DNA of 64,000 nucleotides from the NCBI GenBank assembly GCA_965206165.1, contig OZ242194.1, forward strand, positions 3,586,719 to 3,650,718, given 5' to 3'. The notes beneath the pieces are model-generated. The model worked only from the letters and a program-made list of their open reading frames with translations, made no database searches and was not told where the DNA came from. How positions within the stretch are numbered: the first letter of the stretch is position 1; each line of letters opens with the position of its first letter. Positions 36,107-55,325 of this stretch are shown in pieces. The stretch is from Acidimicrobiales bacterium (lineage in GTDB: Bacteria > Actinomycetota > Acidimicrobiia > Acidimicrobiales > CATQHL01). The translations under genes were made by a program, and so were the position numbers.

Positions 36107-38494
36107 TCAGATCTCCGAGCGCTCCGGGCGTCCTGGTCGGGCTCGGCTGATCAATTTGCCCAACTCCTCGGGATCGTCGGTCAGCGTCGCCACCGTGGCG
36201 GCGTCAACGTCGGCCACGATGATTTCGCCCACCTCGTCGGTGACCGAGGCGAAGAGCCCCTGGTGGCACATCCGCACCGTCTGGTACCGGTTGTCGTCGG
36301 TGGGCGTGAGGTAGTGGACCGACGTGACCTCGTAGCGCAGGATCAGGAACAGGTGCACCAGCGTCATCAGGCGTTTGCGCCGCATCTCCGGCGCGTGCGT
36401 GTTCTGATCGCGGACCGACAGGATCGACCGGCCCCGGCGGTCCCGCAGCACCGTGAAGATGATGTTGGCCAGCGCCTTGCCTGCCGGTTTCTCCCCGCCG
36501 TCGAGGATGGCGAGTTCGAGGATCTCCGAGCCCGCCTTCCAGGGGCGCAACCGCACCCGCGGGCTGATCCCGAGGTCGTGATGGGCGGCCCAGCGCTCCA
36601 GCCAGCCCTCCAAGAGACGGGTCGGCACCTCGGTCTGCACGAGGTGCTGGTATTGCGTGGACCCCTTGCCCATGGCCCGGGTCGTGGCAGTGCGGCCGGT
36701 CGAGGCCATCAGCGCAGCGTCGAGGCGCGGGCCGCCGACGAGTGTCTGCGGTGTCCGGTAAGGGGAGTCCACCAGGCGCAGGCGGCGCTGCAGCTTCGCC
36801 AGTGCCAGCATCCCCTCCTCGCGGAGGGACGCGGCGAACTGCTCGCCGACCATGCCGTCGATCTGGTGGCCGCCGTAGGTGATGAAATTGAAGACGAATC
36901 CCAGCTTGGCCAGCTCTTCGGGGAAGTCCCGCATCTCGTCGTCACTCATCCCCGTGGTGTCCCAGCTGAACGAGGGCGACAGGTTGTAGGCCAGCATCTT
37001 GTCGGGGTAAACGGCGTGGACCGCCTCGGCGAACTCCCGGGCGTCGGCGAGGTTCGCAGTCTTCGTCTCCATCCACAGCACGTCGCAGAACGGCGCCACT
37101 GCCAGCGACTTCGCCACGGCGTAGGGAATCCCTCCCTGCACCTGGTAGTAGCCCTCAGGAGTGCGCGCCGGCTCGGCGTCCCAGTCGACGTCGAGCCCCA
37201 GTTCCTCGGCGCGTGCCCGAGCGCAGGCGTGACTGGCAGTGCGCGCGAATTCCAGCCACTCGTCAACGCTGACGGGGAAGCTCCCGCCCTCGGCTGTCCG
37301 CCACTCGATCTGCTCGGCCACCGCTTCGGCGTACGTGCAGAGCCCGGCGGCAGCCTGCCAGGCCTCCGCGAGCGCATCACCGGCGCGGTCGGCGACCTCC
37401 CCGGCGCGCCCGTGCGGCGCGGCCAGGTATTCCTCGACTGCCTCGTCAATGGCGCTGCCGGCGCCACATCGATCCAGCCAGGCGTCCGCTTGCGCGTACT
37501 CCCCCGCCGGCAGGGCGTAGAGGAGATGACCGTTGGCGCCCTCGACACCGGCCTCCGTCAGGCGCCGCAAGACCGCCAGGTAGGCCGCCTTGTAGGGCGA
37601 CACGTTGCGTGAGGTGGTGCCGAGCACGAACGGCTGGTCGCGCTCGTCGGCCGCGCTGTCGAGCAGGCTGGCGGCCTCGGCGTCGGTGCGCGCCACGATG
37701 ATGCCGCCGACGCCCATCACATCGAGTTGGAAACGGGCCGCGTTGAGTCGCTTGATCTGCTCGTCACAACCCACGAGCACCTTGCCGCCCTGGTGGCCGC
37801 ACTTCTTGTTGCCCGGGCGCTGGTCCTCGATGTGGTAGCCGGGCACCCCCGCCTCCACGAAGCGCCTGATCAGGTTCCGGACGTGAGGGTCGCCCCCATG
37901 GCCGGTGTCGGCGTCGGCGATGATGGACGGCGAGTAGTCCACCTCGGGCACCTCGGCCCGCTCGGCTGGGGTCATGCGGGAGCGCGCGAAGCTCTGGTTG
38001 CGATCGGCGGTCAGCAGGGCACGCACGATGCCGGCGGCCTCGTCGGGAACCATGCTGAGCGGGTAACCGGCGAGGTCGGGGCCGGGATCCTCGTGCGGCG
38101 AGCCCTTGGCGGAAGTTGCCCAACCCCCCAGGTAGATTCCCTCGATTCCGGCCCGCTTCATGGCGACCGCCTGTCCCGGTGAGTACGGCCCGAACGTGGT
38201 GATGCTGCGGCGGGACTCGAACAGCCGCCGGAGCCGCGCGTGGAACCGATCCGCCGCCACACGGGCGACCGTGTAGTCCTGGCCGATCGCTCCCCGCTGC
38301 TCGACCACCTGGCGCGCCGAGTAGAGCCGCGTCAACCCGGTGAACCGGGGCGCCGCCATCCAGCGGCGCGTGGCCTCGAGGTCGGCGTCGAACCGATCCG
38401 GCGCGCCGCTCTCGCCGGGCAGCGCCAGGGGCTGTGGACGGGCAAGCTCGGCCGATGACGGATCCAGCACTGGACTCGGCGAGAGAACGCTCAT
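36107..38494 (-). CDS. aceA: Isocitrate lyase, long (ICL2/AceA-long) form
   Basis: ORF 36107-38548. I prefer the ATG at 38494, preceded by GGAGGTGTCC. ICL signature [12 protein letters not shown]. The ~795-aa length, with an inserted domain and C-terminal extension, matches the mycobacterial Icl2 type. Confidence 0.9.
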
Positions 38495-38793
38495 GGAAGG
38501 ACACCTCCGCTTCGGGTTTCTTCGATTGTTGCTTCGGGAAACCGGCAACTCATCGATCCGAACTTTATGTAGATATTTTGAACCGATTACCGCATTGACC
38601 GCAGATAATCACCATTGCGGAACATAAGTATTATCGATCTTTCGAGAAACAGCATATCTATCTTCTTCTGGAGACATCGGTCGGAGAGTCTCGCGACATG
38701 GCCAGGGGGGCGTCACCCACGGCGGGTGCGCTCGACGCCGTGGAGCCCGCAGGCACCCGCCGATCAAACCGATACGCCGCCTAACGTGAGGGC

Positions 38794-40980
38794 ATGACAG
38801 AAAACACACACGTAACCATCGGGCGGTTGGAGGTCGCAGCCTCGCTCGAGGAGTTCGTTCGTACTGAGCTTGCCCCTGGTACCGGGATCGATCCCGATCG
38901 ATTCTGGGACGACTTCGGCGCCATCGTGGACGACCTTGACCCGCGCTCCCGAGCCCTCCTGGCAACCCGCGACGATCTACAGGCACAGATCGACGGGTGG
39001 CACGTCGCGCGACGGGGCCAACTTCACGACCGGGCTGCCTACGAGGCGTTCCTGCGCGAGATCGGGTATCTGGCTCCCGAACCGGACGGTGTAGGGGTCG
39101 CGACGGCCAACGTGGACCCGGAGATCGCCGACGTGGCCGGACCTCAGCTCGTGGTGCCCATGGACAACGCCCGATACGCCCTGAACGCCGCGAATGCCCG
39201 CTGGGGCAGCCTGTACGACGCCCTCTACGGCACCGACGTGATCCGCACCAACGGCGGCGGCGGGCGGGACGGGCCGTACAACGCCGTGCGCGGCGACCGG
39301 GTCATCGCCTTCGCGCGTGACCTACTGGACCGCCACGCCCCGCTGACGGCGGGCTCACACCGCGGCGCGGTGGCCTACCGGGTGGCCGATGGGACGCTGG
39401 CGGTCGAACTCGACGACGGGAGCAGCGCCGGACTTGCGGCAGGTGCCGAGTTGGCGGGCTACACCGGCGCGCCCGGCGACCCGGACTCGGTGCTGCTGCG
39501 CCGCAACGGCCTCGGGACCGAGATCCTCATCGACCGCGACCATCCCGTCGGCGCCATCGACCGGGCCGGCGTGGCCGACATCGGTCTCGAGGCGGCGCTC
39601 ACCACGATCATGGACCTCGAGGACTCCATCGCCACGGTGGACGCCGCCGACAAGGTCCTGGCCTACCGCAACTGGCTGGGGCTCATGAAGGGCGACCTGT
39701 CGGCCACGTTCGCCAAGGGCGGCCGCAGCATGACCCGGGAGTTGCGCGCCGACTCGCCGTACCTGGACGCCGGCGGCAACCCCATGACGCTGCGGCGCCG
39801 CAGCGTCATGCTGGTGCGCAACATCGGGCCCCACATCGAGACCGACATCGTGTGCCTCGACGGCGCCCCGATCATCGAGACCCTGCTGGACGCCGCCATC
39901 ACGGCCTGGTGCGCGCTGCACGATCTGGCGGGCACCGGGCCGCATCGCAACAGCGCGACGGGGTCGGTCTACATCGTCAAGCCCAAGATGCACGGCCCCG
40001 ATGAGGTCGCCCTGGCCTCCGAGTTGTTCAGCCGTCTCGAGGACGCGCTCGGCATGGCCCGCAACACGCTGAAGATCGGCATCATGGACGAGGAGCGCCG
40101 CACCTCGCTCAACCTGGCTGCGTGCATCGCCGCGGCGGCCGAGCGGGTCATGTTCATCAACACCGGCTTCCTGGATCGCACCGGCGACGACATCCACACC
40201 TCGATGGAGGCCGGGCCCATGATCCCCAAGGCAGAGATCAAGACCTCCACCTGGCTGACCACCTACGAGGACGTCAACGTGGACGTGGGCCTGGCCACGG
40301 GCCTCGTGGGCCGCGGGCAGATCGGCAAGGGCATGTGGACCCGCCCCGACGACATGGCAGCCATGCTGGCGGAGAAGATCGGCCATCCCCTGTCCGGGGC
40401 CTCCACCGCCTGGGTCCCCTCACCGGTGGCGGCAACACTGCACGCGCTGCACTACCTGGAGACCGACGTGGCGGCCCGCCAGCGCGAGCTGGCCGAGCGC
40501 CCGCCGACGCCGGCGCTCGACATGCTGGAGATCGCCACCCTCGAGCCGGGACGGGAGTTGACACCCGCCGAGATGGCCCGGGAGTTGGAGAACAACGCGC
40601 AGGGCATCCTTGGCTATGTGGCCCGCTGGGTTGGCCAGGGCGTCGGCTGCTCGAAGGTTCCCGACATCAATGACGTGGCGCTCATGGAGGACCGGGCAAC
40701 GCTGCGGATCTCGTCCCAGCACATCGCCAACTGGCTGCACCACGGCCTGCTGAGCGCCGAGCAGGTGCACGCCACCATGGAACGCATGGCCGCCGTGGTG
40801 GACGCCCAGAACGCCGGCGACCCCGACTACCAACCCATGTGTGGTGATCTGGCCCGCAGCATCCCCTACCGGGCCGCTGTGGCGCTTGTGATGGAGGGCC
40901 GCAACCAGCCCAACGGCTACACCGAGTTCATCCTCATCGAGCAGCGCCAGAGGATGAAGGCCGCCCTACGCGCCGGCTGA
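38794..40980 (+). CDS. glcB: Malate synthase G
   Basis: 728-aa ORF. Its size and motifs (ARWGSLYDALYGTD, IGIMDEERRTSLNL, STAWVPSP) are typical of the G isoform. It is divergent from the isocitrate lyase gene. Confidence 0.9.
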   Translation: MTENTHVTIGRLEVAASLEEFVRTELAPGTGIDPDRFWDDFGAIVDDLDPRSRALLATRDDLQAQIDGWHVARRGQLHDRAAYEAFLREIGYLAPEPDGVGVATANVDPEIADVAGPQLVVPMDNARYALNAANARWGSLYDALYGTDVIRTNGGGGRDGPYNAVRGDRVIAFARDLLDRHAPLTAGSHRGAVAYRVADGTLAVELDDGSSAGLAAGAELAGYTGAPGDPDSVLLRRNGLGTEILIDRDHPVGAIDRAGVADIGLEAALTTIMDLEDSIATVDAADKVLAYRNWLGLMKGDLSATFAKGGRSMTRELRADSPYLDAGGNPMTLRRRSVMLVRNIGPHIETDIVCLDGAPIIETLLDAAITAWCALHDLAGTGPHRNSATGSVYIVKPKMHGPDEVALASELFSRLEDALGMARNTLKIGIMDEERRTSLNLAACIAAAAERVMFINTGFLDRTGDDIHTSMEAGPMIPKAEIKTSTWLTTYEDVNVDVGLATGLVGRGQIGKGMWTRPDDMAAMLAEKIGHPLSGASTAWVPSPVAATLHALHYLETDVAARQRELAERPPTPALDMLEIATLEPGRELTPAEMARELENNAQGILGYVARWVGQGVGCSKVPDINDVALMEDRATLRISSQHIANWLHHGLLSAEQVHATMERMAAVVDAQNAGDPDYQPMCGDLARSIPYRAAVALVMEGRNQPNGYTEFILIEQRQRMKAALRAG

Positions 40981-41153: not shown

Positions 41154-42140
41154 GACCCGCTGCCGCTCGCCTCGCAGTCCCTGACGGGTCGGCTGCACCG
41201 CATGGAGATCCATCCCTTCTCCCAGGGCGAGATCGACTCCCGGCGCGAGAACCTGATCCAGCTGCTCTTCGTTGACCACGCGGCGGTCCTGACGCCAGAA
41301 CCGTCCGCCACCACACGCGAGCAGTACATAACCCGCATTGCCCGCGGCGGGTTTCCGCTGGCGCTGACGCGGAGCGAAGCGGCGCGGGATCGCTGGTTCG
41401 ACGATTACGTCGCCCTGTGCCTTGAACGCGACCTACTGGACCTAGGCCGCGTGCGCCGGCCCGGCGCGCTCTCTCCCCTGCTGTCACGGCTCGCGGCACA
41501 GACCGCACAGATCCTCAACGCGTCGCGGGCGGGCGCCGAGGCGGGGCTTCCCACAAGCACCGCCTCGGACTACATCGACCTCTTCGAGAGCAACTTCCTG
41601 CTGCGACTGGTGCCGGCTTGGGGGAAGACGCTGCGCGCCGCCACCGCGTCGCGCCCGAAGATCCACCTGGTGGACTCGGGCCTCGCAGCCCGGCTGCTGC
41701 GCCTCACGCCCGAAAGGCTCGGCGGGCTCGACCCCACGTCCTTGCAGCAGTTCGGGCACCTGATCGAGACGTTCGTCGTCGGCGAAGTGCTGAAGCAGGC
41801 GTCATGGATGGAGTACCGCCCGCACGTCGGGCACTGGCGCACGCACGACGGAGCAGAGGTTGATCTCATCATCGAGGACGGGCGATCCGGCTCGGTCGTC
41901 GGCATCGAGGTGAAGGCCGGCTCCCGGGTCCACCCACGCGACCGGCGCGGCCTGCGGATGCTTCGCGACAGACTTGGCGAACGATTCATCGTCGGGGTGG
42001 TCCTCCACACGGGCGCGCACTGCATCCGCTACGCCGACGACGAGCGCATAATCGCCCTCCCCATCGATCGCCTCTGGACCGAGGTCGCCACCGGCCCAAC
42101 GGCTACACCGAGTTCATCCTCACCGAGCAGCAGCGGATGA
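41154..42140 (+). pseudogene. DUF4143-type AAA ATPase gene, 5'-truncated (AAA domain missing)
   Basis: The reading frame after the TAG at 41151 gives DPLPLASQSLTGRLHRMEIHPFSQGEI..., which corresponds to the middle of this family (ESLAGR...L.PLS..E), followed by the DUF4143 region. There is no P-loop region upstream. The 3' end reads out of frame into a glcB-derived segment. Confidence 0.55.
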
Positions 42141-42192: not shown

Positions 42193-45100
42193 TTAGTCGC
42201 CCGCAAGGGCCGCGCGGACTTCGGCGATTGCCGTGTGCAGGTCGTCGACCTCCACCTCGTGGACGCTGTTGGGGCCGAGGAAGACGAAGACGCAGCGCGA
42301 CACCCTGCGGCCGGTGGACTCGCTCACCATGAGGGCGTAGGCGGCGATCTGCAGCCGGTAGCCGGGCTTCTGACGCAGATCGGGACGCTCGTCGGAGGCG
42401 TGGGTCTTGTAGTCGACCACAACGAAGGAGCCGTCGGACGCTTCGTAGAGCAGGTCGATGAACCCCTCCAGGAAGCGGCCCTCGACCTCGGCGCCGGCGT
42501 ACAGCTCACGCCAGTGGCGCTGCCGGGCCGCCTCGCGGAGGGTCGACGAGCTCAGGGCGTTGCGTGCCCTCGCGGCCACGTCGTCGGCGAGATGATCGAT
42601 GCCCTCCGCGGCGGCGTACCGGCTGGCCGACGGCGCGAGCGCCTCGCCGGGTGCATCGAAGCTCACCGTCTGGAGCACGGCGTGAACCGCCCGGCCGAGT
42701 GCCGTGCCGTACCGGCCCCTGCGCCACACCGGCGCATCCTCGTCGATCACGTCCTTGTCGAGGCCGGGATCGGGCGCACCTCGCTCCGCCGGGGGCTCGT
42801 GGTCCTCGACACCGGCGCTCTCGACCGCTCGTCCTCGGAGCTCGGCGGGCGCTATGGCTCCGTTTCCGGTCGCCGTCGCCACCCCGCTCGCAGACACCAG
42901 AGGGCTGCGCGCGGCACAGTCCCACAAAGCGGCATGCTCGCGTTCCCACTCATCGCGGGGCGGAACGGCAGCCGGCGCCCCCGTGGTCGTCGCCGGCACC
43001 GGGTCCACACCGAGGTGCCTGGGGCGAAAATCCCGGTTTCCGGGCACCACAGGTGCATCGGCCGGACCTGCACCGTACGGCGGGTCGCCCGGCTGCAACG
43101 TCTCCAGCGGGCGACCCGCAGTCGAGCCGGCGAGATCCAAAGCCCACACGAAGCTCGTCGGGGATGAAGCCGGCGCCTCCTCCCCCGGCTTATCGGCATC
43201 GGTGGGTACGTCAAGCGCCACGGTTAGCGGATGGGGAGCCACCGCGACCTCTGTGGGCTGCGGATCCACGACTTCAGCGACGGTGTGCGCCAGCAGTTCG
43301 GCAAGGGTCATCTTCGGCAGGATCTCCGCGACGGCCAGGTTCTGCCACGACGGAGGCTTGCGCCCGCTTCGGTACAGCGAGACCGCCAGGTAGTCCTCGG
43401 CCCGGGTGCAGGCCACGTACAGCTTGCGGATGTCCTCGTGGAACTCGTGCAGCTGTTCGGAATCCGCCACGCCGTCGCTGCCGAACGACCTGACGCGTCC
43501 TCCGAGCTTGCAGAATGCCCCCCCACTGCGCGGGAAAGCCAGCTCGGAGGACCGGTTGCCCCGAGTTGGCGTGGTCGTGCCGGAGAATCCCGCCACGACC
43601 ACGAACGGGAACTCGAGCCCCTTGGCGGCGTGGACGGTCATGATCCGCACGGCGTCGTCATCGGTCTCGGGGACGAGCGCCTCGACCACTCGCGCCCCCT
43701 CGCCGCGCTGCATGTCGACCCAGCGGAGGTATGCCCGCAGCGTGCCACCGGTGGAATCCGAGAAGGCCCGCGCCTGATCGGCGGCGCGCCGGAGGCGGCG
43801 CCAGGTGTCCCGGTGACGATCCTCCGCGAAAGCCAGCTCCATCAGCCGGCGCTCCCGCAGAACCCGGTCCACGATCTCCCCCGGGCTGCGCCAGAGCCGC
43901 TGATCGTGAAGCTCTTGCATCCACTCCAGCGCCTTGGCGACCGGGTGGTCGGGTTGCGGGCTCGGGCTCAGGTAGTCCCAGGGCCGGTGGTTGCCGCCGC
44001 AGAGTTGCCGGTAGTTGTACAGGTCGTCGTCCCCAAAGCCGAAGGCGGCCGAGCGCAGTGCTGTCACCACCGCCAGATGGTCCGACGGGTCGTCGGTGGC
44101 ACGCAGCACGGCCAGCAGGTCGGTCTCTGCTCGGGTTGCGTAGACGAGGCTGGAGGACTCCACTCGGTACGGCACGCCGGCCGCCTCGAACGCGCCAATG
44201 AGCGGGCCCAGTACGGTGCGCGCGGGGATCAGGACGCACACGTCGCTCAGCCGCAGGGGCCGCGTTTCCGAGCCGTCGCGCACGGGCCAGCTCTCACCGA
44301 CGGCTCGCCGGATCAGGGCGGCGACCTGGGCGAATTCGATGCGGCGGAGCCGCTCGGCGGGAATGCGGCGCGACTCGCCCTCTCCGAGGCTGTCGGTCCC
44401 CAGGAGGAGCACCGGGGCTCCGACATGGCCGTCGAGTGGGCGGCGGGCGGCTCGAAGGGGAACGTAGTCAGGTTGGGATCCGTCGGCGGGCCGGACGAGG
44501 CGACCGAAGACAGCGTTGACCCAGTCCACGATCGCCGGTGACGAGCGCCAGTTCCTGCTGAGTGTCTCGCGGGCCGTCGGGCCGGCCCACTTCGCCACTT
44601 GCAGATACAGCCCGATGTCAGCCCGCCGGAAGCGGTACAGCGACTGCTTCGGGTCGCCCACGAAGAAGAGCGCTCCGTGGCCACCCTCGAGGTCCTGCCA
44701 GGACGGTGGGCCGACGCCCTCGCCGGGGTCGTCGCAAGCGATCAGCAGGGCCAGCTCCACCTGGATGGGGTCGGTGTCCTGGAACTCGTCGATGAGCAGC
44801 CGCTGGTAGCGCTGGTGCAACGCCCGGCGCACGGCGGCGCCGCGGTCGGGATGACGCAGCAGGTTCCGGGCCTGCACCAGCAGGTCGTGGAAGGCGAGCC
44901 GTCCCTGGCGGCGGCGCCGGTCGGCCTCGGCCAGAACGAAGCCTGCCAGGCGGGCGAGCAGCCGCGCCGAACACGCCCGCCCCGCGGCATCGAGACGTAC
45001 TCCGGCCTCGTCTCGTAACTCCTTCAGGCGCTCACGCACGCCCTCCTTGTCGAAGGCGGGGTGCCAGTTGTCCTTGCGGCTTCGCGGCACTCGCCCCCCG

Positions 45101-45954
45101 GCCACCTCCTCGAGCAACACCACGGCCTCCTGTTCGCCCGCTGCCTCGAGGCGATCGGCCAACCGGTCGAGATGTAAGAGGACTTCGCAGAGGGCGTCCG
45201 CATCGTCGGGAACCGCCTCGGAGAGCCGGTCGAGCGGGACTCGGCACCAGCGGCTCTCACCGGCGAGTTCGCGCATCGGCGCGATCAGGTCGGCGAACTC
45301 CAGCGGTGGCACCTCGGGCAGCTGGTCGAGCGCGGGGATACGCTCGGCGGCCAGATCCCAGTTGTCGGCCATGCGTCGGGCCACGGTCCGCAGGTTCGCC
45401 ACCCGCATCCCCAGGGCGTCTCCCAGCACCAGCGCCCGCTCCATCTCCGGTTCGGCCAGCACCTCCTCCACGAACCGTTCCCAGCCCTCGGCGAACTCCA
45501 TGTCGGCGCCAATCTCGTCGAGCATCTCCAGCCGGGGCGGTAGGCCGGCCTCGGTGGTGTGTTCGCGCAGGATCCGCTGCGCGAACGAGTGCAGCGTGCA
45601 GACCGCCGCGCCGTCCAGATCGTCCAGGCCACGGCGCAGGATCTCTACGTCCCCCTCGGAGGCTCGGCAGCTCGCCGTGACGAGATCCCGCCGCAGACGC
45701 TCGCGCAATTCGGCGGCGGCTTTCTCCGTGAAGGTGATGGCGGCGATGTTGGACAGCGCCACGCCGCTGCGCACCAGCGCCATAATCCGCGCCACCAGCG
45801 CCGTCGTCTTGCCGGTTCCCGCGCCGGCCTCCAGGAAGAGGTCGCGGGTCAGATCCTCGGCCGCGGCATGGCGCGCTCGGTCGTCGCTGTCGCTGCCGTC
45901 ACCGACGCGCTTGCCAGGACCGGGGTCGTCGCCTGCATGCACCGGCCGGCTCAC
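42193..45954 (-). CDS. UvrD-type helicase / RecB-type nuclease subunit (AddA/AdnB-like)
   Basis: 1253-aa ORF with Walker A EAGAGTGKTTAL, LLIDEFQDTD, helicase motifs and the C-terminal nuclease motif FIDLLYE...VVVDYKTH. GTGA overlap with the upstream subunit gene. Confidence 0.85.
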   Translation of the reverse strand: MSRPVHAGDDPGPGKRVGDGSDSDDRARHAAAEDLTRDLFLEAGAGTGKTTALVARIMALVRSGVALSNIAAITFTEKAAAELRERLRRDLVTASCRASEGDVEILRRGLDDLDGAAVCTLHSFAQRILREHTTEAGLPPRLEMLDEIGADMEFAEGWERFVEEVLAEPEMERALVLGDALGMRVANLRTVARRMADNWDLAAERIPALDQLPEVPPLEFADLIAPMRELAGESRWCRVPLDRLSEAVPDDADALCEVLLHLDRLADRLEAAGEQEAVVLLEEVAGGRVPRSRKDNWHPAFDKEGVRERLKELRDEAGVRLDAAGRACSARLLARLAGFVLAEADRRRRQGRLAFHDLLVQARNLLRHPDRGAAVRRALHQRYQRLLIDEFQDTDPIQVELALLIACDDPGEGVGPPSWQDLEGGHGALFFVGDPKQSLYRFRRADIGLYLQVAKWAGPTARETLSRNWRSSPAIVDWVNAVFGRLVRPADGSQPDYVPLRAARRPLDGHVGAPVLLLGTDSLGEGESRRIPAERLRRIEFAQVAALIRRAVGESWPVRDGSETRPLRLSDVCVLIPARTVLGPLIGAFEAAGVPYRVESSSLVYATRAETDLLAVLRATDDPSDHLAVVTALRSAAFGFGDDDLYNYRQLCGGNHRPWDYLSPSPQPDHPVAKALEWMQELHDQRLWRSPGEIVDRVLRERRLMELAFAEDRHRDTWRRLRRAADQARAFSDSTGGTLRAYLRWVDMQRGEGARVVEALVPETDDDAVRIMTVHAAKGLEFPFVVVAGFSGTTTPTRGNRSSELAFPRSGGAFCKLGGRVRSFGSDGVADSEQLHEFHEDIRKLYVACTRAEDYLAVSLYRSGRKPPSWQNLAVAEILPKMTLAELLAHTVAEVVDPQPTEVAVAPHPLTVALDVPTDADKPGEEAPASSPTSFVWALDLAGSTAGRPLETLQPGDPPYGAGPADAPVVPGNRDFRPRHLGVDPVPATTTGAPAAVPPRDEWEREHAALWDCAARSPLVSASGVATATGNGAIAPAELRGRAVESAGVEDHEPPAERGAPDPGLDKDVIDEDAPVWRRGRYGTALGRAVHAVLQTVSFDAPGEALAPSASRYAAAEGIDHLADDVAARARNALSSSTLREAARQRHWRELYAGAEVEGRFLEGFIDLLYEASDGSFVVVDYKTHASDERPDLRQKPGYRLQIAAYALMVSESTGRRVSRCVFVFLGPNSVHEVEVDDLHTAIAEVRAALAGD

Positions 45955-48900
45955 GTGCGATCCTCCGATTCGTGCTCCACCTGATCGTCAGAAGGTGGCC
46001 CGCCGGCCAGGCGTCGGTTCTCCTCGATGGGCAATAGCTCCCTCGCCCCCACCCGGAGCCAACCGATCATCTCGGGGCTCTGGGCCTTGCGGAGGGCTTG
46101 TGCCGCAAGCTCGCCTGCCCGGTGCCGATCGGCGTCGCAGTAGTCGCAGTGCGACGGGTGGCCCCGCGGGCGCGGGTAGGCGGGGAAGACACCGCCGGCG
46201 ATCCCGTCGCAGATACTCGCCAGCGTCCACTGCGTCTCGGCTTCGACCGATTCGTCCAGCGGCAGCGGCAACCAGCGGAAGTCTTCGCTTGCCGTCACGA
46301 ACCAGTACCCGGCGATCACATCGGCCGCCGCGCCGGCCATCAGCCGCGCCGCCTGGGCGTACAGCGGGAGTTGCAGCCGCGGCAGGGCCTCACGCTTCGG
46401 ACCACCCTTGCGGCCCGCCCCCGCATAGATCGCCCACGGTGCCTCGCCGAGCCGCTGGTAGAGGTTGCTGCGGCCCGTCTTGTAGTCGATCACCACGAGG
46501 ACGCCCCTCTCGGTCATGTCGATGCGATCGACCGCGCCGCGCAGGCGGATCGTGCGGCCGTCGCCCAACGGGATCTCCACCGGAGGCAGGGATTCCTCCT
46601 CGCGCCGCCGGGGCGGCATGCCGAAGCCCTTCTCGCTCGCCCACGGCACGCTGCGCCCGGTGCGGCGCCATTCCTCCTCGACGTCGAGGAATGCCAGCAA
46701 CTCGCGGCGGATCCTGCTGCGCTCGGGCTCCCAGAAGATCCGCTGACCGACGCGCCCCTGCCCCTCGCGCTCGGCGAACGCCTCCTCGGCGATCTCGGCG
46801 AAGCGGCGGCGCTCGTCGATCCCCCAGCCGTGCAGCGGATCCGGCGCACCAACCGCCAGGATCTGGCTTAAGAACCGGTCCAGAATCGTGTGGACGAGAT
46901 CACCGCGCTCCAGCGGCGAGATCCGCAATTCCCGTTCTGGTTGATCCACGGGCTCGACGCCGAGCATGTAGCGCATGAAGTAGCCATGAGGGCAGGTCGC
47001 CCACGCCTCCAGCTGCGTGGCCGAGACGGCCGGCCCGCCGCCCGCCGGGTCGGCGATGTCGCACCCTGCGAGGTTCCCGTCGAAGCGCGTGAAAGCGGTG
47101 CTTCGCCGCTCGGTCAGCATCGTCACTGCAGGCTCGAGCGGCTCGCCGGAGGCGGCGAGCCGATGCTCGCCCAGCGAGCCCCCGTTGTCGCGGTGATCGA
47201 GCAGCAGGCGAAGGTCGTACTCCTGGAACGTCGGCGGGAACGCGCACGCCCGGAGGGCGGCGGTGGGCGAGGGCACGTCGCTGAAGATGCCGTCGGGCAG
47301 CTTCGCCAGGTCCCCGGCACCGAGGAGCAAGTCCGACCCGTCGGCGCCGGCGGCCTGTAGCCCGTGTGCCGACGCCAGCAGCCACCGTGACGGCAGCCGG
47401 TCCGCGGTGCGGCGCAGGTCGCCGCGCGGGTAGACGAGCGTGCGCTCGCCCGACGCCCCAGCCAGCGCAGCCAGGAACCTGCGGCGATCGTCGGCCAGGC
47501 GAGCCGGAGGCGAGAGCAACGCATCGGGAACAGCGGCCCGCTCGGTCTCACTGAGCAGGGTTTCCTCGACCGCTTGGCCGGGGAACACGCCCTCTGCCAT
47601 CCCGAGCACCCAGACGCACTCCAGGTCCACGCCGAGCGCCGAGCCGACCGGTCCGGTCAGCAGACCGTGACCCGTGCGTCCCTGCCGACCCCTGCTAGTC
47701 GCGAGTTCGGCCTCCAAGGCGCGGCGGAATCGCGGCAGATCGGGCCGGGGGTCGACGCGATCCAGGCCGCCGAGACGCTCGAGGGAGGCCTCGACGCGCT
47801 CTGCGGCAGCGCGCTCGTGCGGCGGCCAATTGCCCTGGCGCCACTCGGCGCCGCCCACGAGGTCCCGGACCGATCTCTCAGCCCACCCGGCGAGCCTCCG
47901 CCACGACCTCAGCGCGCTCGCCGCCTCGCCACGAGCCAGAACGTCGGTCATGAACAGGCGCAGACTGTCGGCGGTGGCGAGGTCGCGCTCAATGTGGGCG
48001 CGCCGCCAGTCGCTGTCCTCGCCGAGCCGGTCCATCTCGGACCGCCGGTTGGCGCAGTAGTCCCCGAGCCGCCGACTCCACTCCCCGGCTCCGTCGATCA
48101 CCCCGGCGCGGCGGCTGATCCGCTCCCAGGCCGCCACAGGCACCGGGCGCCAACGCCCGTCCCCCCCGACCTCCAGCATCGAGCGGACCGGTGCCCCCGC
48201 CAACCAGGCCATGACGTCTTGGCGCCTGTAGCGGCGTGCGGGCAGGCCGAGCAACTCCAGCAGGAACCGGCCGAGCACGCTCTCGGTCAGCGGACGCGTC
48301 GACGGACCGCTGAAGGGCAACCCCGCCGCCTGCAACTGGTCCGCCAGCAGGCGGGCATAGGGATCGTTGCGCCCGTACAGCACCGCCATCCGCTCCAGCG
48401 GCACCCCGCGGCGCATCGCCTCGACCACCCGCCGCAGCGCGGTGCGCACCTCCTCGTCGGCATCGGGCACGGCGACGATGCGGGTCGGCGCGGGCGCCGG
48501 GACAGCGGCAGGCTGCCAGGCTGCGGGACCGGCAAGGCGGCGCACGCCGGCCGCCACCGGGGCGTCGGCATCGGTGTCGTCGCAGCTGCCGGCCAGGACT
48601 GTGAACCCACCGGCGGCCGAGGTCAACGCAACCAGCAGGTCGAGCGCCGCCGAGCTCAACCGCTGCGGCAGGTACAGCACAACCCGGCCCAACCCGGCGA
48701 CGTCGACCGCCCCGGGTGAGTCACCCTGCGCCTCCGCCGAGCCGACGGCCGGACCAATCGCCCCGCGCGACAGTCCCTCGTGCGAGTCCGTCGGGTCCGC
48801 CGACTCCGGGGCCACAGATTGCTTCCCAACACCAAGCAGCCGCCGGGCCTCGGTCAGCAGATCGCGTTCGTCGTGGAAGCCGCCGGCCGCCAGCCGCCGC

Positions 48901-49367
48901 TGCACCTGCCGACTGATGGCCACGACATCGGCGGCCCGTGCCGAGGACTTCGCCAGCGCGCCCAGCTCGCGCTCGTTGAGATCTCGCAATGTGCGATGCG
49001 CATCGAGGAGGGCGCGCTCGGTGGCGAGGTGGTCGCGCACCTCCCCGAACACCCCCGCGGCCGGTGTCTGCAGCACCTGCCGCACGGCGGCCGCCAGTAC
49101 CGCCGCCGAGGCGGGTCTCCGGCCCTGCGCCGCCAGCGACTCGCCGGCCAGCCGTTCGGCGAGTTCCCGCAGCGTGAGGCAGTCCACCCCGATGAGCCGC
49201 CGCCGGGCCAGCGCCCGGCGCGTCGCCATGGCCAGACGGTGCTCGCCCACCACGACGGTCACCGGCGCCAGGAAGTGCCCCGCCGCCCGGCGCGCGCCTT
49301 CCACCACCTCGCACAGCGCCTCGAACGCCGGCGCCCCGTACGGCGTCACCCGGACCGCAGCAGTCAC
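45951..49367 (-). CDS. Helicase-nuclease partner subunit (AddB/AdnA-like) with a PD-(D/E)XK nuclease domain
   Basis: ORF 45951-49484; a GTG at 49367 (VTAAVRVTPYGAP) is a plausible start. Nuclease motif RGAVDRIDM...VVIDYKTG. Cys residues flank it (TCPHG, SICDG, HCDYCD). I see no GKT/GKS Walker A. Confidence 0.75.
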   Translation of the reverse strand: MTAAVRVTPYGAPAFEALCEVVEGARRAAGHFLAPVTVVVGEHRLAMATRRALARRRLIGVDCLTLRELAERLAGESLAAQGRRPASAAVLAAAVRQVLQTPAAGVFGEVRDHLATERALLDAHRTLRDLNERELGALAKSSARAADVVAISRQVQRRLAAGGFHDERDLLTEARRLLGVGKQSVAPESADPTDSHEGLSRGAIGPAVGSAEAQGDSPGAVDVAGLGRVVLYLPQRLSSAALDLLVALTSAAGGFTVLAGSCDDTDADAPVAAGVRRLAGPAAWQPAAVPAPAPTRIVAVPDADEEVRTALRRVVEAMRRGVPLERMAVLYGRNDPYARLLADQLQAAGLPFSGPSTRPLTESVLGRFLLELLGLPARRYRRQDVMAWLAGAPVRSMLEVGGDGRWRPVPVAAWERISRRAGVIDGAGEWSRRLGDYCANRRSEMDRLGEDSDWRRAHIERDLATADSLRLFMTDVLARGEAASALRSWRRLAGWAERSVRDLVGGAEWRQGNWPPHERAAAERVEASLERLGGLDRVDPRPDLPRFRRALEAELATSRGRQGRTGHGLLTGPVGSALGVDLECVWVLGMAEGVFPGQAVEETLLSETERAAVPDALLSPPARLADDRRRFLAALAGASGERTLVYPRGDLRRTADRLPSRWLLASAHGLQAAGADGSDLLLGAGDLAKLPDGIFSDVPSPTAALRACAFPPTFQEYDLRLLLDHRDNGGSLGEHRLAASGEPLEPAVTMLTERRSTAFTRFDGNLAGCDIADPAGGGPAVSATQLEAWATCPHGYFMRYMLGVEPVDQPERELRISPLERGDLVHTILDRFLSQILAVGAPDPLHGWGIDERRRFAEIAEEAFAEREGQGRVGQRIFWEPERSRIRRELLAFLDVEEEWRRTGRSVPWASEKGFGMPPRRREEESLPPVEIPLGDGRTIRLRGAVDRIDMTERGVLVVIDYKTGRSNLYQRLGEAPWAIYAGAGRKGGPKREALPRLQLPLYAQAARLMAGAAADVIAGYWFVTASEDFRWLPLPLDESVEAETQWTLASICDGIAGGVFPAYPRPRGHPSHCDYCDADRHRAGELAAQALRKAQSPEMIGWLRVGARELLPIEENRRLAGGPPSDDQVEHESEDRT

Positions 49368-49534
49368 GCCCGCAACTGTAGGGACACCCTGTGACAGCCC
49401 CCGCCGCGAGCGACAACTACCGTCCAGCGAGTGAACTGTCGAGAAGACGACGGCGCCGTCCCCCCGCCCGAGGCGGCAGCCCATCAGACCGAGCGGCCCG
49501 AAGGCCGACCCCGATCCAACCAGGACCAGCGCCC

Positions 49535-50845: not shown

Positions 50846-50921
50846 GAGCCGGATCGCCGACCAGACCAGTCTTGTTAGCTGCCCGCTGCGACGGTGAACG
50901 GCGCGAGCCTTCGAGCCCCCC

Positions 50922-51683
50922 TCACCGGGCGCCGAGAAAGGCTTTGCGGACCTTCGGGTCGGCAAGGAGCGTGGCCGCACGACCCTGGTGGGTGATGCGG
51001 CCCATCTCGATGACGTAGCCGCGGTGGCTGGCCTCGAGGCCCTGGCGGGCGTTCTGCTCGATCATCAGGACTGTGAGTCCGATCTCCCGGTTGAGGCGGC
51101 GGATGGCGGCGAAGATCTGGCGGGTGATGATGGGCGCCAAGCCGGCCGACGGCTCGTCCATCAGCACGAGACGGGACTCGTACATGAGCGAGCGGCCGAT
51201 CTCGAGCATGCGCTGCTCGCCGCCTGACATCGTGCCGGCGGCCTGACGGGAGCGCTCGGCGAGGCGGGGAAACAGGCCGTACACGTAGTCGATGCGCTCG
51301 CGCACCCGTGCCTTGTCTCGCTCGGTGACCATGCCCATCTCGAGGTTCTCATGAACCGTCATCTGCGCGAACACGCTGCGCAGCTGCGGCACGATGGTGA
51401 TTCCGGCGATCCGCAGGGCGTCCTGCGGGGCGATGTTGGTGATGTCGCGCCCCTCGCAGAGCACCCGACCTGAGCGCACCGGCACCAGGCCGTACACCGC
51501 CTTGAACACCGTCGACTTGCCCGCCCCGTTGGGGCCGATCACGCAGACGATCTCCCCGCGATGCACCTCGAGGTCGACACCGGTGAGGATGTCCTGGCTG
51601 GCGAAGTAGCCCGCGCGCACGTCCTGCACCTCCAGCAGCGGCCGGCCAGTCGAGGCGGTCGAGGGTTCCGGGCGGCCCGTCAC
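50922..51683 (-). CDS. livF: Branched-chain amino acid ABC transporter ATP-binding protein (LivF-type), apparently intact
   Basis: 253-aa ORF with Walker A GPNGAGKST, MSGGEQRMLEIGR and LVLMDEPSAGLAP. Confidence 0.85.
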   Translation of the reverse strand: MTGRPEPSTASTGRPLLEVQDVRAGYFASQDILTGVDLEVHRGEIVCVIGPNGAGKSTVFKAVYGLVPVRSGRVLCEGRDITNIAPQDALRIAGITIVPQLRSVFAQMTVHENLEMGMVTERDKARVRERIDYVYGLFPRLAERSRQAAGTMSGGEQRMLEIGRSLMYESRLVLMDEPSAGLAPIITRQIFAAIRRLNREIGLTVLMIEQNARQGLEASHRGYVIEMGRITHQGRAATLLADPKVRKAFLGAR

Positions 51684-51761
51684 CGGGTGACCTCCTCGCC
51701 ACGGCTGCGGGACCCGCCGACCGCATCACGAGCCCCCCCGAGCCGCGACCGGATCCGCCGA

Positions 51762-52429
51762 TCACGGTGTGCCCTCCCGGGGGACCCCGGAATCGCCCTG
51801 CGTTCCAGCATCGCCGGGATCGCCGAAGTCGGCCTCGATCACGGCCGGGGTCTCCATGATCTCGCCAGGCGTACCGTCGGCCAGCACGGCACCCTGGTCG
51901 AGCACGACGACGCGCTCGCAGAGGTCGGCCACGAACTGCACGTTGTGCTCGACCAGCAGGAACGCCAACCCGCGGTCGATGTTGACCGCTCGCAGCCGAT
52001 CTGCGATATCGGCTACCAACGTCGGGTTGACGCCGGAGGTGGCCTCGTCGAGCAGCACCAGCCGCGGCTCGCTCATCAGCGACATACCGATCTCCAGCAG
52101 GCGGCGCTGGCCGCAGGAGAGGTTGCCCGCCCGCTCGTGGCGCAGCCGCCCCAGGAGCAGGAAGTCCAGCAACTCGTCGGCACGGCGGCGGGTGGCGGCG
52201 TCGGTGCGGGCGAAAAGCGCCGGTACCCCCAGCAGCCCCCACTGGATGCTGAGGTGCATGTTCTCCGCCACAGACAGCTCGCGGTACACGCGGATGAGTT
52301 GGAACGTGCGCGACATCCCGAGTCGGGCCACGTCGTGGGGGCGGCGCCGACGCTGATGTCGACATCGTCCACGGCGGTCAGCCCGCCGAACCGCTTGACC
52401 ACGCCGCGGGCCTCCAGCAGCGCCCTCAC
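51762..52429 (-). pseudogene. livG: LivG-type ABC ATPase gene with an internal deletion that removes Walker A and shifts the frame
   Basis: From the GTG at 52429 (GTGA overlap with livM) the frame gives VRALLEARGVVKRFGGLTAVDDVDISVG, then nonsense. The livG-like sequence resumes in another frame (ORF 51762-52469) at DVARLGMSRTFQLIRVY. About 40 expected residues containing GxxGxGKT are absent (junction near 52333-52345). Confidence 0.7.
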
Positions 52430-53346
52430 GACGGAGCCTCCGCTGCCCGCCCGCGGCGCCACCGGCCACCCAGCCCCCACAGCTCCGCCAGGGTCGTGCC
52501 CTTCCGGTCGACCAGCCCCACCAAGCCCCGCGGCACGAACAGCACGATCGAGATCAGCAGCACTCCCTGCGCCAGCAGGTGATAGTCGAGCAGGTGCGTC
52601 CACAGCACCTCGCGCAGCCAGTACAGCGCCGCGGCGCCGAGGATCGGACCGGCAACGGTGCCCAGGCCGCCCAGCATCGTGCCCATGACGGCGTCGATCG
52701 TGCGCACCTCGACGAAGGCGATGTCGGGGTCCACGAACGTGTTCTGGTAGGCCCACAGCGCGCCGAAGAGACCCGTCGAGAGCCCGGCGAAGCTGAAGAT
52801 CGCCGTCTTGAGGAGCGTCGTGTCGATGCCGCGCGTCTCCGCGCCGATCTCGTCCTCGCGGATCGCCACCAGCGCGGCGCCGAAACGAGTGCCCCGCAGC
52901 CACCAGGTGAACATCACCAGCATGGCGATGGAGAAGTACGGCCCCTTGAGGCGCATGGTGGCCCGGCCGATGGCCGCCGCCAGCAGGCCGGCCACCAGAG
53001 CCCCGATCACGATGGCGGGCACGGGCGGCCAACCCACCTGCGGCCCGTTGCTCTGCGGCGACATCAGAATGGCTGTCGTGTAGGCGCCGATGCCGAACCA
53101 GACGGCGTGGCCGAAGTCCACGTAGCCACAGAAACCGCCGGTGAGGTTCCAGTTGATCGCCACACCGATGCTGGTGAGCATCAGGGTCAGCGTCAGCAGC
53201 GTGGCGTTGGAAGTGCCCGACCGCAGAGGCAGAACGGCGAGCACGACCAGCGCCGCCAACGCGGCCAGGCTGGCGGCCCGGCTCGGCAGCCGCTCGCGGC
53301 CCCCCGGCTCCGCCACGTCGCTCACCACCGACTCCTCACGTGCCAT
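52426..53346 (-). CDS. livM: LivM-type ABC permease; open frame but probably carrying an in-frame internal deletion
   Basis: 306-aa ORF. It reads RLKGPYFSIAMLVMFTWWLRGTRFGAALVAIREDEIGAE. Family members I recall have roughly 55-90 residues between these blocks (the GG.nG loop plus a TM helix); here there are about 6. Confidence 0.6.
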   Translation of the reverse strand: MAREESVVSDVAEPGGRERLPSRAASLAALAALVVLAVLPLRSGTSNATLLTLTLMLTSIGVAINWNLTGGFCGYVDFGHAVWFGIGAYTTAILMSPQSNGPQVGWPPVPAIVIGALVAGLLAAAIGRATMRLKGPYFSIAMLVMFTWWLRGTRFGAALVAIREDEIGAETRGIDTTLLKTAIFSFAGLSTGLFGALWAYQNTFVDPDIAFVEVRTIDAVMGTMLGGLGTVAGPILGAAALYWLREVLWTHLLDYHLLAQGVLLISIVLFVPRGLVGLVDRKGTTLAELWGLGGRWRRGRAAEAPS

Positions 53347-53394
53347 CGGCCCAGCCCGCCCCTGGCTACAACCACGTCGCTCCGACTCCTGGTC

Positions 53395-54041
53395 TCACGT
53401 GCTCGTGGCGTCCACGTGACGCAGGCCCTTGAAGATGCCCTGCGGCCGCAGCACCAGTGCGGCCACGAGCAGCACGAACGAGGCCACGACGGCCAGGTTC
53501 GTGCCGATGCGGTCGACGTACAGCGCCAGCACCGCCTCCACCAGGCCGAGCACCATGGCACCGCCGAGGGCGCCACGCACCGACCCGAGCCCCGCCATGG
53601 CGGTGATGGCGAAGACCTTGAGCGTCAGCGGCGGGCCCTGGAACGGCTGCACCGCCAGCAGCGGGCTGACCAGCGCTCCGGCCACGCCGGTGAGCCCGAT
53701 GCAGAGGGCGAACGTGACGGCGTAGACCTTCGGGATGTCGACGCCCACGATCCGCGCCGCCTCACCAGCGAGGATCGGCCGATGACGTTCACGAGCAGCC
53801 TCTGCGTCACGTAGCCGAACGCCACCATCACCACGAACACCGCCGGCGCCGAGACGAACGGGTCGACATCCCAGACGTCGTTGGCGACCCAAGCGAGATA
53901 GGCCCCGACCATCACGAACTCGCCGTGGGCGAGGTTGATGACACCCATCACACCCCAGATGACCGAGAAACCCAGGACCAGGATCGTGTACATGCCCCCG
54001 AGAGCGACGCCGTTGATCAGCGCCTGAGCGAAATAGCTCAC
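53395..54041 (-). pseudogene. livH: LivH-type ABC permease gene with an internal out-of-frame deletion
   Basis: The N-terminal part is in ORF 53625-54041 (MSYFAQALINGVALGGMYTILVLGF...QRLLVNV). The C-terminal part is in a different frame, in ORF 53395-53892 (ILAGEAARIVGVDIPKVYAVTFALCIGLTGVAG...LRPQGIF). The junction is near 53775-53790. About 100 central residues are missing. Confidence 0.7.
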
Positions 54042-54071
54042 GGTGACTGCCCCACGCCGTCGAACATCCGC

Positions 54072-55325
54072 TCAGTCACGCGGGTAGACGAGGCCGGCCA
54101 CGGCCGCGGCATCGGGGGCCACGACACGGACCTCGCCGGCCTGCACCTGGATCGTGCCCATGGGCTTGGCGGTGTTCACGCCGCGCCCGTCGAAGGCGAT
54201 CGGTCCGTAGAACGTGTCGGCCCGCAGCGACCGCAGCGCCTCTCGCACTGCGCCGGTGTCGGTGCTTCCGGCGGCCTCGATGGCGAGGTGCAGGGCCAGT
54301 GCAGCTGCCGTGGCGCTGGCAGCCTGGTACACGGGGGGCTCGCCCCAGAGCCGCTCGTAGTAGGCCGCGTAGTCGGCGGCGCTGCCGAACTACCTGCCCT
54401 GGTAGACCATCGTGGCCTCCCACTGGGTGGGACCCAGCACGCCCTCGACATCGTCGTCGAGCTGCTCGACCAGCCTGGGGTTGGATGGGCCGACCGTGAT
54501 CAGCATGGCATCAGGCTCGAAACCCAACTCATCGGCCGCGTTCACGAACAGCACGGCGTCGTTGTAGTGACCGCCGCCCAGGAACACGTCCGGGTCGAGG
54601 TTGCGGAACTTGGTCATGATCGCCGAGACGTCCTGGATGTCCTTCGGGTACGTCTCGACGGCCAGCAACTCGACACCGTTGGACTCCAGATGGCGTCGCG
54701 CCCCGTTTGCCACCGCCGTGGGGAACGACGTGTCCTCGTGGGCGATCACGGCCGTTCGAGCGCCGCGCGCCGCCAACGCCTCGATGGCCGATTTCGTGTA
54801 GTCGCCGGCGATGGTGGCCACCAGGAACAGATTCTCGAAGCCTCGCTCGAACATGGTGTCGGCGCTGCCGTTTCCCTCCACCATGAGCATGCCGTTGGCC
54901 TCGGCGATGGCGCTGGTGCCGCTGGTGAGGCCGCTGGAATAGGGCCCCAGCAGGAAGTCCACCTCATCGATGTCGATCAGGCGCTGGACCAGGTTGGCGG
55001 CGGTGTCGGCGTCGGACTCGTCGTCGTAGTAGATGATCTCGGCGGCGAAACGATCCTCGCCGATCCGGATGCCGCCGTAGTCCTCGTTCACCCAGCGCAC
55101 CCAGGTGTCGTAGCCCTGGCGCGAGTCCTTGCCCTCGACGGCGAACGTTCCGGTCTCGCTGAGAGCGGCGCCGATGCGGATCGTGCCGTCGAAGCCGCTG
55201 AGGTCGACGGGCCCGGTTCCGCCCCCGCCGGGTGCCGCGATGTCGTCACCGGAGTCGCCCCCACAACCGGCTGTCGCGGTAGCCAGGACGAGGGCAAGCA
55301 CGACCGCCCGAACGAGTCTCCGCAC
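54072..55325 (-). pseudogene. livK: LivK-type substrate-binding lipoprotein gene interrupted by one in-frame TAG
   Basis: ORFs 54390-55325 and 54072-54332 are in the same frame. The read-through is ...GPTQWEATMVYQGR*FGSAADYAAYYERLWGEPPVYQAASATAAA..., with the TAG at 54390-54392. N-terminal lipoprotein signal LATATAGCGG. Confidence 0.75.

Follow-up and report, generated by a model that had tools for sequence, protein, structure and literature searches.

A young pseudogenised operon for a predicted HAAT-family importer in an uncultured sponge-associated actinobacterium

Results

Four of the five importer genes carry disabling lesions

We analysed a 64-kb window of the chromosome of an Acidimicrobiales bacterium (contig OZ242194.1, positions 3,586,719 to 3,650,718; GC content approximately 69%), which contains an operon for a predicted ATP-binding cassette (ABC) importer of the HAAT family. 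Four of the five genes of this operon were found to be damaged, each by a different lesion: the locus, from an uncultured sponge-associated actinobacterium, is a transporter operon that became pseudogenised recently, a real feature but an ordinary one. Such damage had been proposed earlier from the letters of the window (the original prediction); reading frames, Pfam matches and alignment to orthologues confirmed it and showed that the lesions had been placed correctly or nearly so.

The five genes are co-directional, on the minus strand from 55325 to 50922, and have by Pfam the architecture of a LivK/H/M/G/F-type importer: one binding protein (Peripla_BP_6), a pair of permeases (BPD_transp_2) and a pair of ABC ATPases, of which the first bears a BCA_ABC_TP_C tail. 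Pfam matches were obtained in all five genes or gene fragments, which agrees with the architecture of a HAAT member. The parts of a functional member, that is, both ATPases with all their motifs and both permeases at full length, are not complete; LivF alone is. Gene order is identical in four syntenic relatives (loci L001 to L004) and in the 60 intact loci described below. The overlap of the livM stop and livG start codons noted in the original prediction is present (Table 1), and the intact positional orthologues bear out that the genes formerly made up one operon.

The lesions were sized by DNA alignment to the intact orthologues in L001 to L004, which gave losses of 244 plus 3 bp, 135 bp and 127 bp in livH, livM and livG, respectively. 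In livK, the single in-frame TAG that had been predicted cuts the binding protein after residue 311 of approximately 417. At this site all four relatives have TGG, coding for the Trp of a W-FGSAADY motif. The gene gave one tblastn high-scoring segment pair (HSP) with the L001 orthologue, at 82% identity.

The main livH deletion amounts to 81 codons plus 1 nt and takes with it two hydrophobic segments. Residues 1-94 and 176-297 of the 297-aa L001 orthologue fall in frames -3 and -2 (tblastn), and the BPD_transp_2 match is divided into an N-terminal part (positions 2-78 of 269) and a C-terminal part (positions 166-269). An out-of-frame deletion with a junction near this one had been foreseen, but its size, put at about 100 codons, had been overestimated. 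The same was true of livM, for which an open frame with an internal loss was correctly described but the loss is of 45 residues, not 55-90.

In livG, the frame changes after 27 native residues and the C-terminal two-thirds are kept in another frame, with the ABC_tran match restricted to positions 54-137 of 137. Both the loss of Walker A and the change of frame had been anticipated, with a junction at approximately 52340, close to the one found. Only livF is intact, again as proposed: it covers residues 1-256 of the 256-aa orthologue at 88% identity with no stops, matches ABC_tran from position 1 to 136 of 137 and holds all ABC motifs.

Alignment to L001 to L004 revealed no foreign, inserted or templated sequence at any deletion junction. 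Microhomology at the junctions is 1-2 nt in livH and 3-5 nt in livM; in livG, a possible GGCGCCG microhomology spans 1-7 nt, depending on the ancestral sequence. No window-specific frameshifting indels of 1-2 bp were seen in the retained coding sequence, where the loss of one livH codon is the sole small private coding change. The three deletions lie within 1.42 kb (53764 to 52348), spaced by approximately 855 and 560 bp. According to our own calculation, four lesions would fall in four different genes by chance in approximately 18% of cases given the gene lengths, and their distribution is therefore unremarkable.

Table 1. Operon genes, lesions and immediate neighbours, in window coordinates
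Feature	Position	Strand	Description
livK-like lipoprotein binding-protein pseudogene	54072..55325	-	418 codons including one internal stop; Peripla_BP_6 positions 1-341 of 343 span the stop
livH-like permease pseudogene	53395..54041	-	N- and C-terminal parts in different frames
livM-like permease gene	52426..53346	-	Open frame, 306 aa; 45 conserved residues gone
livG-like ATPase pseudogene	51762..52429	-	GTG start overlaps livM stop (GTGA, 52429-52426)
livF-like ATPase gene, intact	50922..51683	-	253 aa; Walker A, signature motif and Walker B all present
livK nonsense codon, TGG to TAG	54390..54392	-	In-frame; Trp in relatives
livH 3-bp loss (one codon)	53787/53786	-	CGG in 4/4 relatives; window-specific
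livH 244-bp frameshifting deletion, junction	53764/53763	-	Residues 95-175 of the 297-aa orthologue gone
livM 135-bp in-frame deletion, junction	52909/52908	-	Net 45 residues, including the conserved LTGGGVGL block
livG 127-bp frameshifting deletion, junction	52349/52348	-	Residues 28-70 gone, including Walker A GPNGSGKT
MFS transporter gene, intact	55345..56709	-	Upstream of livK, with 19 bp to its start
Spacer separating livF from the convergent FAD-oxidoreductase (DAO) gene	50846..50921	.	76 bp in the window

The 3' end of livG, with the livG-livF spacer (51684-51808), varies in length among the intact orthologues. The livG C-terminus is longer in the window, L003 and L004, where the spacer measures 78-190 bp; in L001 and L002 livG and livF overlap or are adjacent.

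The lesions are derived and confined to the operon

Related loci were collected by scanning one genome per species with a degenerate pattern. The scan yielded 80 loci, with best matches at 83-84% identity; the genome of the window is absent from the representatives. Nearly all of these loci belong to metagenome-assembled genomes (MAGs) from Acidimicrobiia associated with sponges (Ca. Poriferisodalis, Spongiisocius, Poriferisocius, Aldehydirespirator and unnamed relatives). The literature on the named relatives yielded nothing on this transporter or on pseudogenes.

Between 46.8 and 64 kb, the window is collinear with loci L001 to L004 (nucleotide identity 81-86%), which makes the operons of these loci positional orthologues. 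All four of these operons are intact, the products in L001 being 416, 297, 354, 255 and 256 aa long. The four lesions are private to the window, and the deleted segments are present in 4/4 of these orthologues. The genes thus carry disabling lesions relative to intact orthologues at the equivalent chromosomal position, which identifies them as pseudogenes. The segments deleted from livH, livM and livG also occur in more distant genera, and those of livH and livG in all intact loci; they are therefore ancestral, and the deletions in the window are derived.

Among the best 120 LivM homologues, the conserved segment GTFVAVREIVRV..LTGGGVGLTLPPYLNR..LFYY is missing from the window protein only. The other 119 have 38-45 or more residues in this segment, with very high conservation. 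Window LivM is also the shortest of the 120, barring one 288-aa match on a 2.9-kb contig. In a collection of 5.8 billion proteins it is a singleton (P0001), located on an NCBI/ENA contig of 3,669,279 bp, and a search of this collection for a second conspecific assembly returned, besides the window's own protein, no LivM with more than 82% identity. Natural short variants, an outcome considered in the original prediction, were looked for and not seen: the lesions are not length variants of the family.

Recoding of the livK stop codon was considered and rejected, because TAG is the ordinary terminator of 7 of the 33 confidently called window genes and the site is a Trp codon in the relatives.

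Of the flanking genes, 12 have counterparts in L001 or L002, and each of these is full-length (single HSP, no stops, 80-90% amino-acid identity); the lesions are therefore confined to the operon. This result covers the 17 kb with synteny, the whole-window frame plot and the gene caller based on third-position GC content being too noisy for a pseudogene census. The original description of an otherwise intact gene set holds for these 12 comparable genes.

The inactivation is recent

The ratio of nonsynonymous to synonymous substitution rates (dN/dS) between the window and its relatives was 0.10-0.16 for the five liv genes and 0.11-0.21 for the flanking genes; comparisons of relatives with one another gave values of similar size. 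Private changes of the window were counted at codons where 4/4 relatives share the amino acid. Nonsynonymous and synonymous changes (N:S) stood at 41:99 for the four broken genes, compared with 63:194 for the flanking genes (odds ratio 1.28, Fisher p=0.34). The decaying operon therefore shows no raised dN/dS and, because both measures match those of the flanking genes, its inactivation appears to be recent. As a rough estimate, the excess of approximately 9 nonsynonymous changes over approximately 2,000 sites would place it at about 1% neutral divergence or less. The low dN/dS of the retained sequence is explained by this recent date and does not contradict the structural evidence.

The operon is structurally wrecked but evolutionarily young. 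The advanced decay described in the original prediction is thus correct for the structure of the genes but not for their substitutions. Similarly, the intact positional orthologues support gene decay over a sequencing error, but the relaxed selection proposed at the same time is not visible in the substitutions.

The homologous operon has been lost repeatedly in related species

A survey of the relatives showed that the homologous operon is intact in 60 of the 73 loci, each from a different species, with enough sequence to judge. Where the operon has been kept, dN/dS is approximately 0.1-0.25. Multi-gene loss with different junctions was found in five other species. In L011, livK is kept, livH, livM and livG are gone and livF is present from residue 174; L016 shows several internal deletions (approximately 690 and 450 bp) and a replaced 3' part; in L046, livH, livM and livF contain stops and frameshifts and livG is gone. 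A clean deletion of approximately 3.85 kb has removed livH to livF from L056, and in L080 livK residue 295 is fused to livF residue 81. Single lesions were observed in L024, L041, L043, L053 and L058. Lost or broken operons sit approximately 10-15 kb into each locus.

In the L013-like clade, the only clade checked in this respect, the 13 flanking genes are almost always intact, and 6 of 17 loci have a damaged operon. The operon looks like a hotspot of loss when judged against the flanking genes of this one clade. What is new here is the repeated independent loss of the homologous operon in related sponge symbionts. A broader reading, in which convergent independent losses across the sponge-associated Acidimicrobiia mark a shared and possibly selected shift in the uptake of host-derived nitrogen or carbon, is conceivable but on balance doubtful.

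No substrate can be assigned from family scores

The original prediction named the system a branched-chain amino acid importer. Its Liv-type architecture stands, but the substrate is unproven. Compared with the NCBIfam Liv equivalogs, the subunits of the intact L001 orthologue scored (bits/cut-off) 77.1/477, 118.2/379, 81.9/366, 203/362 and 230.6/441; the corresponding values for UrtABCDE were 53.6/492.75, 199.8/250.3, 113.8/296.2, 206.4/304.1 and 204.3/285.8. No subunit reaches a Liv or a Urt cut-off, and the operon belongs to neither equivalog set. On these scores, the system is therefore predicted to be a HAAT-family importer without assigned substrate, "branched-chain amino acid" being a family label only. 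HAAT-family substrates include amino acids, amides, urea and aromatic acids. The solved structures matched by the binding protein are distant, the best (E-value 1e-23) being 8wch, annotated as a "probable Leu/Ile/Val-binding protein"; further distant relatives are amide- and urea-binding proteins.

Neighbourhood of the operon

Transcription from the MFS gene upstream of livK may read through into the dead operon. A consensus scan for promoters and terminators, poorly suited to a high-GC organism, found no promoters and one terminator-like site, inside the MFS gene. The Rfam scan of the window found one tRNA only. No second HAAT-type system was found within the window; the other ABC system found there, at 269-2530, has an NMT1/SsuA-type binding protein.

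Downstream of livF, the position of the short spacer is taken in the relatives by variable cargo of 1.4-3.8 kb (L001, 14782-17090; L002, 14803-18556; L003, 8985-10410; L004, 12906-15493). L001 and L002 carry there a gene for a 733-aa molybdopterin oxidoreductase (Fdh-alpha-like), L002, L003 and L004 a 421-aa AAA+DUF4143-like gene, and L004 an additional open reading frame of 326 aa that by eye is HNH-endonuclease-like. Absence of the molybdopterin oxidoreductase gene was rejected as a fifth lesion of the window: L003 and L004 also do not have this gene and carry other cargo, as in a variable island.

A DUF4143 gene located elsewhere in the window (41175-42140, plus strand) may be a second gene remnant. 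Its 312-aa product matches only residues 117-389 of the 421-aa AAA+DUF4143 homologue, and the approximately 195 bp after the malate synthase gene neither match the N-terminal ATPase domain nor could accommodate it.

Other regions of the window were noted as follows. The segment 22597-32046 (minus strand) has an unusual strand composition, with GC skew down to -0.17 and AT skew up to +0.165, and codes for a 2137-aa protein with RTX (HemolysinCabind x7), Big_9 and GDSL-lipase domains and for a 904-aa eukaryotic-like protein with RCC1 repeats; both large genes are of a kind typical for sponge symbionts. Two adjacent intact genes at 42193-49484 (minus strand), coding for 1253 aa (UvrD helicase and PD-(D/E)XK nuclease) and 1177 aa (PD-(D/E)XK nuclease), resemble an AdnAB-type helicase-nuclease for the processing of double-strand breaks. 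The regions 36107-40980 and 58160-61370 contain apparently intact glyoxylate-shunt genes (isocitrate lyase, 813 aa, and malate synthase G) and an apparently intact cluster of methylmalonyl-CoA mutase, B12-binding subunit and MeaB beside a TetR regulator.

Discussion

The state of the operon is very probably explained by an importer that became dispensable or was knocked out, followed by neutral accumulation of further lesions under a deletional bias that has not yet reached livF. A functional five-gene HAAT importer operon would have been present in the ancestor of this sponge-associated Acidimicrobiia lineage, and the need for it would have ended, or the knock-out occurred, only recently. Each of the four lesions by itself would be expected to abolish transport, given a truncated binding protein, a frameshifted LivH without two membrane segments, a LivM without 45 residues and a frameshifted LivG without its P-loop. 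After the first hit the remaining lesions, mostly deletions of 127-244 bp at very short microhomologies, would have been neutral, and livF may be intact simply for want of a hit so far. We infer this order of events and the neutrality of the later lesions; the deletions may have arisen by illegitimate recombination, end joining or slippage. A supporting analogy is provided by L016, with comparable and independent multi-deletion decay, and by L011, L056 and L080, with their whole-operon deletions.

Several points weigh against this explanation. A single assembly is on record for the genome, and it is the one source of the lesions. Three deletions of more than 100 bp with no 1-2 bp frameshifts are less typical of young bacterial pseudogenes. 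No redundant paralogue from the contig of the window was found among the best 120 LivM homologues. Finally, the point substitutions show no detectable relaxation, which leaves the structural lesions as the whole of the case for relaxed selection.

Because there is just this one assembly, and since the relatives are MAGs from complex sponge communities in which strain mixtures are common, the lesions could in principle be errors or minority alleles in a metagenome-assembled chromosome whose dominant genome is intact. This is very unlikely. No known base-calling error mode produces three clean deletions of this size (127-244 bp) in coding DNA that is unique and non-repetitive, the surrounding 17 kb shows 12/12 genes intact and free of frameshifts, and the homologous operon has decayed in a comparable way in other genomes, which were assembled independently. 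Hardly credible is a system still working through functional short variants or recoding, with read-through of the TAG and programmed frameshifts. Walker A is physically gone from LivG and two membrane segments from LivH, the missing LivM segment is found in 119/119 other homologues, and the TAG is a normal stop in this genome region at a site where relatives encode Trp. The open frame of livM, the retained start/stop overlaps and ribosome-binding context and the low dN/dS of the retained parts would agree with such a system, but recent inactivation accounts for the last of these.

It is also possible, but improbable, that the three deletions occurred together, by template switching or by error-prone repair of a single break resembling microhomology-mediated break-induced replication or non-homologous end joining. 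Their similar sizes and their spacing are compatible with one complex event, as is a junction microhomology of merely 1-7 nt; with neither 1-2 bp indels nor a substitution excess in the retained sequence, very little time would have passed between events. However, a similar pattern of several deletions, of other sizes, is seen in L016, as expected from ordinary deletional bias, the junctions contain no inserted or templated sequence, and the nonsense mutation in livK would be separate in any case. Slightly more probable, although still unlikely, is adaptive loss of an importer that is harmful in the sponge host, for example through uptake of toxic metabolites of the host or of neighbours, entry of phage or toxins, or wasted ATP. 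The recurrent losses would then reflect selection, and the different junctions in L011, L016, L046, L056 and L080, the single lesions in five more loci and the damage in the L013-like clade beside almost always intact flanking genes are in agreement with this. Yet a dispensable accessory transporter is equally expected to be lost repeatedly, most loci that could be judged retain the operon under purifying dN/dS values, and the sequence holds nothing to separate positive selection from neutral loss.

Loss of need or knock-out followed by neutral decay is thus the reading we prefer. For annotation, it means that metabolic reconstructions of this symbiont should not treat LivM (306 aa) and the fragments of LivK (311 aa) and LivG as a working transporter. 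The locus also captures decay cleanly at an early stage, with mid-sized deletions already present ahead of any substitution signal. The recurrent loss could point to a nutrient whose uptake turns dispensable or costly in some hosts, for which a genome-wide rate and host metadata are needed.

Comparison with known systems

The importer shares its five-component architecture and gene order, including the BCA_ABC_TP_C tail on LivG, with the LivJ/LivK-LivHMGF importer of E. coli, a member of the HAAT family (TC 3.A.1.4), and the best solved-structure matches of the binding protein are Leu/Ile/Val-binding proteins. By equivalog scores, however, it is only a distant relative of the E. coli system; its binding protein is a predicted lipoprotein, with a Cys lipobox-like signal, and in the window four of the five genes are dead. 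The HAAT architecture is also common to the urea importer UrtABCDE, and for the permeases and LivG the Urt models give slightly higher scores than the Liv models. In contrast, all scores are under the Urt cut-offs, that of the binding protein being only 53.6 against the 492.75 of UrtA, and the window genes that were scanned include none for urease.

Deletion-biased decay of pseudogenes is known from host-associated Mycobacterium leprae, Rickettsia and insect endosymbionts. The present case differs in being a single young locus in a 3.67-Mb genome, with an intact neighbourhood and no genome-wide reduction, and its lesions are deletions of intermediate size; small frameshifts are absent, and a substitution signal has yet to appear. 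As in those organisms, a dispensable locus has been disabled and appears to have been eroded by deletions at short microhomologies, next to neighbours that stay under selection.

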